From a virus (lineage: Duplodnaviria; Heunggongvirae; Uroviricota; Caudoviricetes), in IMG/VR virus record IMGVR_UViG_3300001493_000033: a stretch of 6,692 nucleotides of DNA; one strand, given 5' to 3'. The notes beneath the pieces are model-generated. The model saw nothing but the letters and a program-made list of their open reading frames with translations. It was not told the DNA's origin and ran no database searches. A program made the position numbers and the translations under genes. Below, piece after piece: positions 3,076 through 6,692 of the stretch (position 1 is the first letter of the stretch; every line of letters begins with the position of its first letter).

Positions 3076-3704
3076 TTACAGATAATTGCGGTAACTGTTA
3101 TCCGGGGTGGTTTCCGGGTCAGGCTCCGTGCGGGGAATTTCCCGCCATTCCCGCGCTACCGGTGCTGCCCGGCTGACCGGAACAGGGTCCTGCGGGTAAA
3201 TATCCAGATATTTCTCCCGCCATTTCTGTAATTCCGGGTCTCCGGCCATTTCTTTCAGTACCGCATGCCGGTTTACGGAGCTGCGTTTAAACAGGTCAGG
3301 ACGGTCACAGGTAAATTCCCGCAGAAAACGCCCCAGCGGGATGTCTGTGGTGCGCCCGTCGGCGAGGATACGCACAAGGATACTGAATTTACGGCGGTAC
3401 GGATTCCAGACAATGTCCGGGCAGCGGTACGGCATTTCCCANNNNNNNNNNGGCTGCGTTTAAACAGGTCAGGGCGGTCACAGGTAAATTCCCGCAGAAA
3501 ACGCCCCAGCGGGATGTCTGTGGTGCGCCCGTCAGCGAGGATACGCACAAGGATACTGAATTTACGGCGGTACGGATTCCAGACAATGTCCGGGCAGCGG
3601 TACGGCATTTCCCACGGAATACCGTCTTCCAGAATGCCGACCACGGCCACATCGGGAAAACCGGCAGAACGGTAAATCTCACCGGGCTGGGGAAAATCAA
3701 ACAT
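3076..3704 (-). CDS. Hypothetical protein, P4 orf151-like; 151 aa once the gap-flanking duplication is collapsed
   Basis: The 143-aa and 119-aa ORF fragments overlap through a 162-bp duplicated segment either side of the N run; merging at MPYRCPDIVW gives 32 + 119 = 151 aa. RBS GGGAG 9 nt before ATG (3704-3702), which overlaps the upstream gene stop (ATGTTTGA). Confidence 0.65.
3280..3614. repeat. Duplicated 162-bp segment on both sides of a 10-N scaffold gap (3280-3441 and 3453-3614); probable assembly artifact
   Basis: Near-identical sequence (2 mismatches) directly flanking nnnnnnnnnn at 3442-3451; collapsing it restores a single in-frame 151-aa ORF. Confidence 0.6.
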
Positions 3705-3984
3705 GCGTCCTGTCTCCCCGGTCTTTCTGCTGGGCGAGAAAATCGCGGCACAGGCCTTTGGCTTTCAGCTCATTCAGCACAAAATCAATATCTTCATTCA
3801 GGTAACTGAAAATATGCGGAATGTAGAGCTGATGCAGGCCGGAGAGTTCACGGTGAATCAAATCACCCCCAACAAACTGGGATACGGCGCTGGCGCGGTT
3901 GAGCTTATGGTAAGCCTCAATGCTGAGGTGTTCACGGGCGTCATGACGTGCTGAGACGGTCTGAGGGGCTTTTTTATTACGCAC
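3697..3984 (-). CDS. Epsilon-position protein, 95 aa, GTG start
   Basis: Open frame ending in TGA at 3699-3697, overlapping the next start codon; in-frame GTG at 3984-3982 preceded by GGAGGU with 5-nt spacing; overlaps the stop of the upstream small ORF. Assignment is by position and size only. Confidence 0.5.
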
Positions 3985-4174
3985 GGGACACCTCCACCAC
4001 CGGCAGACGGGCAGCAAGGGAGAGCACATAGTCACGGACAAGGGAACGGCGGGCGCTGCGTTCATCACCGGCGACGGTGCGAAGCATGCAGATACGGGGA
4101 TGACGGTCTGCGCGACGGACAGCCGCAAACACAAAGACAAATTCAGGGTGTGAGGGGGTAAGGGTTGTAGCCAT
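3977..4174 (-). CDS. Small protein, 65 aa, Kil-position (possible host cell division inhibitor Icd/Kil-like)
   Basis: ATG at 4174-4172 with RBS GGAGG (4186-4182) 7 nt upstream; product [21 protein letters not shown]...; identical copy at 5969-6166. Function inferred from position in the P4 operon, not from sequence recognition. Confidence 0.55.
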
Positions 4175-4181
4175 GATGGCA

Positions 4182-4296
4182 GCCTCCTTGAAGTAACAGT
4201 TACAGCTACCACTGGAGTTCCTACGCTCATGGGTGGTAGCCCGGACGGGGGTAGGAATACCGGCCTTCAAGGAAACCGGCCAGCCCGAAGGCTGCC
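4182..4296 (-). ncRNA. P4-type immunity leader RNA region (CI-like): seqB-like element plus seqC-like target overlapping the Kil-like RBS
   Basis: Plus-strand cttcaagg (4265-4272) and gtaggaa (4251-4257) are complementary to ccttgaag/gttcctac at 4186-4226 and again at 4408-4433; local hairpin gctaccac/gtggtagc (4205-4212/4233-4240); CAGCC-UUCG-GGCUG tetraloop hairpin (4281-4294). RNA boundaries not determinable from sequence. Confidence 0.5.
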
Positions 4297-4377
4297 CCGC
4301 CCGGACCACCATTATCTGACAGAGGCTACGGTTTAAAAACCACAGCCAGAAAAACAGGTGTGCCGAAGCAACGACGT

Positions 4378-4399
4378 AAAAAAAGACGCATGGCGCGTC
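4378..4399 (-). terminator. Intrinsic terminator between the upstream seqA-like site and the seqB element
   Basis: Minus-strand GACGCGCCAUGCGUC (6-bp stem incl. one GU, 3-nt loop) followed by U7 (A-run 4378-4384 on plus); conserved in the second copy at 6406-6427. Confidence 0.55.
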
Positions 4400-4407
4400 A
4401 TATGTCG

Positions 4408-4433
4408 CCTTGAAGTAACTCGGGTTCCTACGC
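4408..4433 (-). promoter_or_regulatory. seqA-like upstream target site (direct repeat of the seqC-like site)
   Basis: ccttgaagtaac (4408-4419) and gttcctacgc (4424-4433) repeat the motifs at 4186-4197 and 4217-4226; both are complementary to the seqB element. Confidence 0.5.
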
Positions 4434-4462
4434 CCGGCTGCCGATTTTGCGGCAGCGGAGAA

Positions 4463-4492
4463 ACTATATCCGCAAATGCCGGAAAAAGGCAA
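4463..4492 (-). promoter_or_regulatory. Candidate sigma-70 promoter (PLE-like) reading toward the immunity region
   Basis: On the minus strand, -35 TTGCCT (4492-4487), 18-bp spacer, -10 TATAGT (4468-4463); conserved in copy 2 (-35 at 6515-6520, -10 at 6491-6496). Prediction by eye only. Confidence 0.35.
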
Positions 4493-4527
4493 GCCAGAAA
4501 AAGGGACTTTTTGCAGAGCGGGCATCA

Positions 4528-4794
4528 TCATGCGTCGTACCCCCGTTTGCGTCCGGCAATGCGCCCGGCCATCCATGCGGTGATTTCAGAGTGCAGCCAG
4601 GCCACATTTTTACCGCCAAGACTCACCTGCGGCGGAAATTCCCCCTTACGGATGAGTTCATAGATGGTCGAGCGTGACAGGCCGCACAGGTGCATCACTT
4701 CCGGCAGACGTAAAAAACGCTCCTGCGTGATGTCCGGCAGCGGCATCAGTGGCGTCACAGGGGCGGGAGACGGGGAAGAAAAAACAGCTTGCAT
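4528..4794 (-). CDS. alpA: AlpA/Vis-family phage transcriptional regulator (excision/integrase regulator), 88 aa
   Basis: Product contains the AlpA-type helix-turn-helix region [27 protein letters not shown]; RBS GAGGU 6 nt before ATG (4794-4792); same size as P4 orf88/Vis. Confidence 0.88.
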
Positions 4795-4896: not shown

Positions 4897-4914
4897 TGTT
4901 CCGGNAGCCTTACA
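4897..4914. promoter_or_regulatory. TGT-N12-ACA dyad, candidate Ogr/Delta-type activator site for the leftward late promoter (PLL-like)
   Basis: TGT (4897-4899), 12 nt, ACA (4912-4914); centre about 55 bp from a plausible leftward start near 4850, upstream of the regulator ATG at 4794. Confidence 0.4.
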
Positions 4915-4940
4915 ATGACTGTGTGTTTTTTGTTCATTCC

Positions 4941-4970
4941 CACTTAAAGTCATTTAAAGCCACTTAAAGC
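4941..4970. repeat. Three tandem 10-bp direct repeats (cacttaaagt / catttaaagc / cacttaaagc)
   Basis: Perfectly phased decamers at 4941-4950, 4951-4960, 4961-4970, between the leftward dyad and the ori-like iterons. Function unknown. Confidence 0.5.
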
Positions 4971-5073
4971 AATTCGTAATTTTTATAGTGAAATACAAAT
5001 CGTTTCTTCTTATTCATTCACAGCGAATTAATAAAAACAAACAGTAGTAAACAGCACAAAAAGTCCATGAGCG

Positions 5074-5178
5074 GGTGAACAGTGGTGAACAGACGGTGAA
5101 CAGTCATTACTGCGATTGTTCACCCNTTAACTTACTGTATTACTTATCTTTTTTCTTATGGTGAACAGAGGTGAACAG
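5074..5178. repeat. Iteron cluster, ori-like
   Basis: GGTGAACAG at 5074-5082, 5084-5092, 5095-5103 (about 10.5-bp phasing), 5160-5168, 5170-5178, and inverted TGTTCACC at 5117-5124; flanked by AT-rich sequence (4970-5070, 5180-5200). Confidence 0.6.
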
Positions 5179-5256
5179 TAAAATATAAAAAAACAAACAG
5201 TAAGCCGGTTTTTCCTGCGACCTTTTCCTGGCTTGCCGGTCTGAGGATGAGTCTCC

Positions 5257-5274
5257 TGTGTCAGGACTGGCACA
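5257..5274. promoter_or_regulatory. TGT-N12-ACA dyad, candidate Ogr/Delta-type activator site for the rightward late promoter (Psid-like)
   Basis: TGT (5257-5259), 12 nt, ACA (5272-5274); centre about 55 bp upstream of a predicted start near 5320, with the ATG at 5347. Confidence 0.45.
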
Positions 5275-5346
5275 TCTGCAATGCGTCGTGTTGTTGTCCG
5301 GTGTACGTCACAATTTTCTTAACCTGAAGTGACGAGGAGCCGGAAA

Positions 5347-5931
5347 ATGTCTGACAACACCATCCCTGAATATCTGCAACCCGCACTGGCACAACTGGAA
5401 AAGGCCAGAGCCGCTCATCTTGAGAACGCCCGACTGATGGATGAGACCGTCAAGGCCATTGAACGGGCAGAGCAGGAAAAAAATGCGCTGGCGCAGGCCG
5501 ACGGAAATGACGCTGATGACTGGCGCACAGCCTTTCGTGCAGCCGGTGGTGTCCTGAGCGACGAGCTGAAACAGCGCCACATTGAGCGCGTGGCACGCCG
5601 GGAGCTGGTACAGGAATATGNCAATCTGGCCGTGGTGCTGANTTTTGAACGTGAACGCCTGAAAGGGGCGTGTGACAGCACGGCCACCGCCTACCGGAAG
5701 GCACATCATCACCTTCTGAGTCTGTATGCAGAGCATGAGCTGGAACACGCCCTGAATGAAACCTGTGAGGCGCTTGTCCGGGCAATGCATCTGAGTATCC
5801 TGGTACAGGAAAATCCGCTCGCCAACACCACCGGCCATCAGGGCTACGTCGCACCCGATAAAGCTGTCATGCAGCAGGTGAAATCATCGCTGGAACAGAA
5901 AATTAAACAGATGCAAATCAGCCTCACCGGC
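5347..5931 (+). CDS. Sid/Psu-family late-operon protein, 3-prime end lost in the scaffold gap (at least 195 aa)
   Basis: ATG at 5347 with RBS GAGGAG 6 nt upstream (ORF track begins at an upstream in-frame GTG, 5329); charged, coiled-coil-like product; first gene downstream of the divergent dyad promoter. Position and length fit Sid better than Psu, but this is not resolved. Confidence 0.55.
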
Positions 5932-5968
5932 NNNNNNNNNNGCTGAGACGGTCTGAGGGGCTTTTTTA

Positions 5969-6166
5969 TTACGCACGGGACACCTCCACCACCGGCAGAC
6001 GGGCAGCAAGGGAGAGCACATAGTCTCGGACAAGGGAACGGCGGGCGCTGCGTTCATCACCGGCGACGGTGCGAAGCATGCAGATACGGGGATGACGGTC
6101 TGCGCGACGGACAGCCGCAAACACAAAGACAAATTCAGGGTGTGAGGGGGTAAGGGTTGTAGCCAT
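5969..6166 (-). CDS. Second copy of the Kil-position small protein (65 aa)
   Basis: Same ATG and RBS context as 3977-4174; the coding region lies entirely within the near-identical duplicated segment. Confidence 0.5.
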
Positions 6167-6173
6167 GATGGCA

Positions 6174-6461
6174 GCCTCCGTTAGATAGCAGGTTACGCTA
6201 TCGCCGGAGTTCTCACGCTCGATGGCGATAGCCCAGACGGGGGTGAGAATACCGGCTCTAACGGATACCGGCCAGCCCGGAGGCTGCCCCGCCTGAGCTA
6301 CCATTGACTCAGTGGCATAACATGCGATTGCAAACAGGATCATACCTGCACGGCAAACCACACGCCACACCATAATCTGGCGCTCTGTGGCGTTGATTGC
6401 GACACAAAAAAAGACGCATGGCGCGTCATATGTCGCCGTTAGATTGCTCGGGTTCTCACGC
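6174..6461 (-). ncRNA. Variant P4-type immunity region (seqA-, seqB-, seqC-like sites with altered but mutually complementary sequences)
   Basis: seqC-like ccgttagatagc (6178-6189) and gttctcacgc (6209-6218); seqB-like gtgagaa (6243-6249) and tctaacgg (6257-6264); seqA-like 6436-6461; hairpin gctatcgcc/ggcgatagc (6197-6205/6224-6232); UCCG-loop hairpin 6273-6286; terminator 6406-6427. Confidence 0.5.
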
Positions 6462-6555
6462 CCGGCTGCCGATTTTGCGGCAGCGGAAAAACTATATCCG
6501 CAAATGCCGGAAAAAGGCAAGCCAGAAAAAGGGAGTTTTTGCAGAACAGGCATCA

Positions 6556-6692
6556 TCATGCGTCGTACCCCCGTTTGCGTCCGGCGATGCGCCCGGCCAT
6601 CCATGCAGTGACTTCAGAGTGCAGCCAGGCCACATTTTTACCGCCAAGACTCACCTGCGGCGGAAATTCCCCCTTACGGATGAGTTCATAGA
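6556..6692 (-). CDS. alpA: AlpA/Vis-family regulator, second copy, C-terminal part only (5-prime end beyond window)
   Basis: Near-identical to 4528-4664; stop codon at 6558-6556. Confidence 0.75.

Follow-up and report, generated by a model that had tools for sequence, protein, structure and literature searches.

On the minus strand of the window, at positions 6162-6520, we identified what is very probably the immunity cassette of a second P4-like satellite prophage. Its RNA immunity code differs at six positions from that of the cassette found at 4170-4492 on the same strand, and every one of these differences is exactly compensated at both of the target sites. In the following, the cassette at 4170-4492 is referred to as copy 1 and that at 6162-6520 as copy 2, while the window denotes the whole stretch of DNA that was analysed (6,692 nucleotides, IMG/VR virus record IMGVR_UViG_3300001493_000033).

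The window derives from a draft assembly and represents part of a P4-like satellite prophage; its minus strand encodes the alpha primase (272-2605, 777 aa, with a P4-family primase domain) and a DUF5375 protein. The contig that carries copy 1 encodes, also on the minus strand, the epsilon 'Derepression' protein (3697-3984; Derepression domain), an Icd/Kil-like protein of 65 aa (3977-4174; NCBIfam NF033153) and AlpA/Vis (4528-4794, 88 aa; Pfam Phage_AlpA). Alpha primase, epsilon and AlpA/Vis belong, together with sid, to the core genes of P4-like satellites, whose order is conserved and which are flanked further out by delta, psu and integrase; the presence of the first three places the window among these elements. 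Copy 2 itself is accompanied within the window by kil, part of epsilon and part of vis only. Its Icd/Kil-like gene (5969-6166, minus strand, 65 aa; NF033153, 76.1 bits against a cutoff of 25) heads the repressed operon, and the 3' part of its AlpA/Vis (orf88) gene (6556-6692, minus strand) is homologous to 4528-4794 and is cut by the window end. In the nearest complete genomes, the P4-like elements are completed by delta, psu and int. Ten TGTTCACC iterons were found in two clusters (18-221 and 5074-5177), compared to 0.24 expected; these resemble the repeats to which the alpha protein binds in the ori and crr of P4.

Covariance models of three Rfam families, C4, isrK and c4-a1b1, matched the minus strand of both copies above their gathering scores. 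Minus-strand positions are given throughout for the features of the two cassettes, with the plus-strand letters of the motifs in brackets. In copy 2, a PLE-type sigma-70 promoter (6491-6520; TTGCCT, an 18-nt spacer and TATAGT) precedes a leader ('seqA') RNA at 6407-6484, which was assigned to isrK (RF01394, 72.0 bits, gathering score 50) and consists of two 5' hairpins, the seqA targets and an intrinsic terminator. The c4-a1b1 targets (RF03163, 49.5 bits, gathering score 46.7) span 6445-6497. Within seqA, the second-element target GUGAGAA is located at 6453-6459 in the loop of the second hairpin, which has 4 bp (gttctcac, 6452-6459), and the loop target UCUAACGG at 6436-6443 (ccgttaga). The terminator (6406-6427) has the stem GACGCG/CGCGUC at 6413-6427, followed by a U run. 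It is separated by a 97-nt spacer from the CI RNA, a C4 antisense RNA at 6221-6308 (RF01695, 74.5 bits, gathering score 45) with a 17-bp basal stem and two hairpins. The CI RNAs of both copies cover positions 1-87 of the 87 in the RF01695 model, and a tRNA-like CCA can be read from the sequence after the basal stem. The seqB loop element CCGUUAGA (6257-6264; tctaacgg) lies in the 12-nt loop of hairpin 2, and the seqB second element UUCUCAC (6243-6249; gtgagaa) is single-stranded and located 3' of the same hairpin. Both targets recur downstream in seqC, with GUGAGAA at 6210-6216 (gttctcac, 6209-6216) and the loop target UCUAACGG at 6178-6185 (ccgttaga). The latter overlaps the GGAGG Shine-Dalgarno sequence (6175-6179) of the Icd/Kil-like gene, and UCUAACGGAGG is found 8 nt ahead of the AUG of this gene at 6166.

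Long open reading frames cross the CI RNA in the window (3977-4576 and 5969-6604, both on the minus strand), in two further loci (L068, 7028-7618; L069, 7258-7635) and in P4 itself (L001, 485-901). In public annotation these frames appear as 'ash family protein', 'cI gene product' or an over-long 'Icd-like protein', and the RNA gene is unannotated. As the CI region is annotated as protein, such loci are invisible as RNA switches.

Copy 1 has an anatomy like that of copy 2. Its promoter (4463-4492) carries identical hexamers and its terminator (4385-4399) an identical stem. The isrK leader spans 4379-4456 (RF01394, 72-73 bits across both copies), the c4-a1b1 targets 4417-4469 (RF03163) and the CI RNA 4229-4316 (RF01695, 86.1 bits). 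The seqB loop element CCUUGAAG was located at 4265-4272 (cttcaagg) and the second element UUCCUAC at 4251-4257 (gtaggaa), while the corresponding loop targets are found at 4408-4415 in seqA and 4186-4193 in seqC (ccttgaag in both), and the second-element targets at 4425-4431 in seqA (gttcctac, 4424-4431) and 4218-4224 in seqC (gttcctac, 4217-4224). The original prediction had named fourteen motif positions in the two copies and proposed that the central element and both repeat sites had changed together. All fourteen motifs were recovered where it had placed them, and in both copies exact 8-nt and 7-nt complementarities are kept at both targets. Counted on the two strands, CCGTTAGA occurs three times compared to 0.11 expected, a number reached by none of 200 shuffles, and TTCTCAC occurs four times compared to 0.60 expected.

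Pairwise alignment of the copies likewise bore out the proposal that the flanks of the immunity region are almost unchanged. The AlpA end, the promoter and the first leader hairpin are identical at 228 of 235 positions (97.0%), and the Shine-Dalgarno sequence, the Icd/Kil-like gene and the start of epsilon at 235 of 236 (99.6%), whereas the core from seqA to seqC shows 68.9% identity with 36 gap columns. The immunity code comprises six variable bases in the loop element and two in the second element, and copy 2 differs from copy 1 at four of the former and both of the latter, exactly compensated at both targets. Repression by either CI RNA is therefore expected to be limited to elements of its own kind.

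C4-type antisense RNAs, including the P4 CI RNA, are excised from their precursor by RNase P at the 5' end and by trimming at the 3' end, and accumulate as molecules of ~77-79 nt. In the copy 2 cassette, a constitutive PLE-type promoter would give rise to a leader RNA bearing the bipartite target seqA (GUGAGAA followed by UCUAACGG) and the intrinsic terminator. Transcripts that read through the terminator would include the CI RNA, and by analogy with P4 a C4-family antisense RNA of ~80 nt would be cut out of them. This RNA would expose two single-stranded elements, CCGUUAGA within the loop of a hairpin and UUCUCAC immediately 3' of the same hairpin, for pairing with seqA and with the second target copy, seqC, over the Shine-Dalgarno sequence of the Icd/Kil-like gene. 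Pairing would then be expected to cause premature termination and a block of translation, so that the downstream operon (kil, epsilon and the alpha primase) would be switched off in the resident element as well as in an incoming element with the same code. For copy 2, the processing of the CI RNA, the termination and the actual immunity are assumed from published work on P4, where the CI RNA arises by processing of an untranslated leader and brings about premature termination by pairing with seqA and seqC (PMC4825925). Complementarity of this kind has been noted in P1, P7, N15, P4 and phiR73 (PMC7567579). The anatomy, the family membership, the covariation and the orthogonality calculated from predicted pairing energies are direct results of the present comparison.

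In order to sample the wider family, we used a locus pattern in which the conserved bases around seqB were fixed, the code positions were left free and the targets were ignored. A scan of one genome per species in GTDB returned 66 loci and a scan of IMG/VR 120 loci; 184 were usable, with 23 different loop codes and two second-element alleles. The exact complement of the locus's own loop 8-mer was present at seqA or seqC in 179 of the 184, and at both in 148, compared to 94 of 30,476 cross comparisons in which a given loop complement was sought in the flanks of loci of another type. A single mismatch or wobble at one target is tolerated in ~20% of the natural loci. In the alignment of 66 sequences, 98.4% of the seqA-seqB cells and 98.3% of the seqB-seqC cells are paired, compared to 32-54% when the partner was slid by 1-3 columns, and the pairings contain 179 and 175 double-change cells, respectively. 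The observed covariation score was reached by none of 500 shuffles of these aligned loci. Up to four pair types were observed at six of the eight loop pairs. The CI fold shows the same behaviour, with 99.9% of cells paired over 27 pairs, compensatory changes at ten of them and 30-52% pairing in slid controls. The claim that base pairing is under selection thus holds in the wider sample, where complementarity is kept in ~98% of cells across 23 loop codes and the code positions do not vary freely.

Some further features of the sampled loci were observed. The loop codes CCGTTAGA, CCTGTGAA, CCAATAAG and CCTTTTGC were each found with either second-element allele, which indicates that the two parts of the code reassort. 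Loci of the CCAAGGTT type were never seen with a perfect match at both targets simultaneously; in several Erwinia loci among them, it is seqC that carries the mismatch. The CI-type RNA pattern with matching targets was also detected in two Pseudomonas contigs (L033 and L037) and on a 44-kb plasmid of Apirhabdus apintestini (L046). These loci fall outside the described range of P4-like satellites, which is restricted to Enterobacterales and never on plasmids.

A further helix joins the CI RNA to an arm downstream of it. In copy 2, the arms of this alternative hairpin (6197-6232) are gctatcgcc at 6197-6205 and ggcgatagc at 6224-6232, and in copy 1 (4205-4240) they are gctaccac at 4205-4212 and gtggtagc at 4233-4240 (plus-strand letters). 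That this internal hairpin covaries, as had been suggested from the two copies alone, was confirmed across the related loci, where 99% of cells are paired and six of the eight pairs show double changes. The 3' arm of the CI basal stem (6224-6232 in copy 2) doubles as the 5' arm of this hairpin, whose loop holds the second-element target of seqC. Since the CI 3' arm is common to both, the alternative hairpin and the CI basal stem are mutually exclusive. The same arrangement was also found in the P1-like RCS47 and in the N15-like phiKO2 and PY54 (loci L190, 674-709; L191, 796-835; L192, 673-710). The hairpin might serve to present the target, or act as a switch in the unprocessed precursor; both are guesses. 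Folded as a whole for minimum energy, the copy 2 leader (6162-6493, minus strand) is predicted to lack the CI fold and to prefer cis pairing between seqB and seqC, while the CI fold is kept in the corresponding prediction for copy 1. As a thermodynamic prediction, the copy 2 fold is given little weight beside the covariation.

A pair of direct repeats with one inverted repeat close to a promoter might also be read as sites acting at the DNA level, for protein binding or recombination, rather than as RNA pairing partners. This reading is scarcely credible and was rejected. The covariance models match above their gathering scores, and the downstream target overlaps a Shine-Dalgarno sequence. Furthermore, G-U pairs were observed on the transcribed strand only, in the antisense pairings, the CI fold and the alternative hairpin, and such pairs become A-C on the opposite strand, which argues for RNA rather than DNA-level repeats. 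An RNA mechanism is, in addition, published for P4 (PMC4825925). With RNA pairing as the preferred reading, the two cassettes could still be cross-immune, the changes representing neutral drift within one specificity for which partial complementarity suffices. In its favor, the second element keeps six of seven pairs between the copies (five Watson-Crick pairs and one G-U), and natural loci tolerate single mismatches at one target. However, the loop element has at most two contiguous pairs in common between the copies, and the loop duplexes have predicted energies of -1.1 to -4.1 kcal/mol between copy 1 and copy 2, compared to -11.3 to -14.8 kcal/mol for cognate duplexes. The predicted values for the second element are -2.4 to -5.3 kcal/mol between copies and -9.2 to -11.8 kcal/mol for cognate pairs. 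Among all loci, only 0.5% of the loop pairings between types reach or exceed the stability given by the 75th percentile of the cognate energies. Moreover, neutral drift would not alter three sites in step over 23 codes. Continued cross-immunity is thus highly improbable, and drift was rejected on the grounds of the in-step change of three sites and the weak predicted cross duplexes. Hetero-immunity of copy 1 and copy 2 is a sound prediction from these modelled energies, although the retained second-element pairs may allow some cross-talk. P4 and phiR73 are reportedly hetero-immune through differences of this kind.

Both cassette types are common. A core with at least 99% identity to that of copy 2 is present in 44 complete E. 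coli genomes, and at least 24 of them, E. coli F11 and MS 200-1 included, match it at 100%; for the copy 1 core, 122 genomes reach 99% or more. In these genomes, the RNA region carries a protein annotation ('ash family protein' or a long Icd-like ORF). Each copy is also found, at 99.9% identity, in complete P4-like prophages, and in the nearest complete genomes the prophage gene order is integrase, hotspot genes, psu, delta, sid, vis, immunity region, icd-like gene, epsilon and alpha. The placement of both regions in one window raises the question whether copy 2 is only an assembly product, in which case the two regions would be neighbours in no genome and may derive from two cells or strains in a mixed sample. 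We regard this as doubtful, but several observations point in its direction. The window is interrupted by two scaffold gaps of 10 Ns each (3442-3451 and 5932-5941), of which the second lies between the contigs of copy 1 and copy 2. The piece carrying copy 2 is a contig of 751 bp that begins and ends within sequence common to copy 1, and the contig ends across the first gap overlap by 162 nt with two mismatches in the alignment (3280-3441 and 3453-3614). Given the two gaps and the overlapping ends, the window consists of contigs strung together rather than of one continuous sequence. Complete genomes hold each type in an ordinary single P4-like prophage, with sid followed by delta and psu, and no complete E. 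coli genome with both cores was found among the matches listed, where about one would be expected. The tandem layout of copy 1 and copy 2 is a scaffold artefact, since copy 2 lies behind 10 Ns and real elements continue from sid to delta and psu. The adjacency of the two immunity regions in the original prediction therefore does not stand, being a scaffold join through the Ns at 5932-5941 and no genomic arrangement.

The copy 2 sequence is nevertheless real, as is evident from the complete genomes that contain its core without a single difference. Single Ns occur at 22 positions within 81-2666 of the first contig and at four within 4905-5642. Six of the 22 coincide with differences between two related complete satellites, compared to a background of 1.5% (P = 6e-7). 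Such a pattern points to the collapse of two similar elements into one assembled sequence, as would be expected if both were present in one sample. The separate core contig, the overlapping ends with mismatches and the placement of the Ns all fit two similar satellites collapsed in one assembly. E. coli genomes contain up to four such regions each, and up to three P4-like elements per genome have been reported (PMC8628076). Three same-genome pairs were found in the GTDB scan, all with different codes; ~90% of random pairs differ in any case. Among the names listed for the IMG/VR loci, no two loci came from one isolate genome. Co-residence of the two satellites in one cell is plausible, and an origin from a mixed sample would fit these observations too.

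It is conceivable, though we think it unlikely, that P4-like satellites and the wider C4 family contain a large, modular and uncatalogued repertoire of RNA immunity 'barcodes' and, separately, that the hairpin shared by P4 with P1 and N15 relatives is an undescribed switch in the precursor. If true, such a repertoire could let near-identical satellites share one cell. Neither the barcode repertoire nor the hairpin switch was found in the searchable literature, a large survey of P4-like elements contains no discussion of immunity, and a catalogue of loop codes may be unreported. As a discovery, the cassette itself carries little weight, being the classical RNA immunity of satellite phage P4 with relatives in Rfam. 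Copy 2 and P4 do, however, constitute a very clean natural swap of specificity, with four loop bases changed and mirrored at both targets and the rest of the RNA unchanged. The natural orthogonal codes are possible parts for designed antisense regulators, and the set of codes can be used to ask if satellites sharing a genome avoid sharing a code.

Among known systems, P4, whose immunity was studied by Deho, Ghisotti and co-workers, shows the closest resemblance. Its gene order is like that observed here (vis/orf88, PLE, seqA, terminator, cI, seqC, kil, epsilon and further on alpha), and it aligns over the full length of the copy 2 region with 88.8% identity. The CI RNAs of P4 and copy 2 (87 nt) differ at four positions, all in the loop, and the changes are mirrored by four in seqA and four in seqC. 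The second element UUCUCAC is shared, whereas the loop code is CCUGUGAA in P4 and CCGUUAGA in copy 2. Predicted loop duplexes between copy 2 and P4 have energies of -3.3 to -5.0 kcal/mol, compared to -11.3 to -14.0 kcal/mol for the cognate ones. With a loop code unlike that of P4 and matched targets, copy 2 is thus predicted to be hetero-immune to P4 as well. The retronphage phiR73 is a P4-like satellite with an RNA immunity specificity unlike that of P4, and so parallels the case proposed here for copy 1 and copy 2; it is reported to differ from P4 in this respect (Sabbattini et al. 1996, Virology 216:389). The IsrK sRNA of Salmonella Gifsy-1 represents the family matched by the seqA leaders (RF01394, 72-73 bits), and is called a structural homologue of the P4 SeqA RNA in PMC4825925. 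Activation of the translation of its own long form has been reported for IsrK; no such role is known for the seqA leader.

The c4 RNA of P1 and P7 belongs to the same Rfam family and has the same fold and bipartite antisense elements as the CI RNAs described here. It reportedly acts as an antisense RNA on the targets a1/b1 and a2/b2 upstream of icd-ant (Citron and Schuster 1990). Phages of the c4 type also include N15, phiKO2 and PY54, and the downstream target is located at the ribosome-binding site of an icd-like gene, as in the present cassettes. RNA immunity and the switching of its specificity by compensatory changes are already known from P4 and phiR73 and from P1 and P7. In the phages with c4 RNA, control by the RNA is exerted on an antirepressor operon, and the RNA ranks second to a protein repressor, whereas in P4-like satellites the RNA controls the replication operon and is itself the primary factor of immunity.
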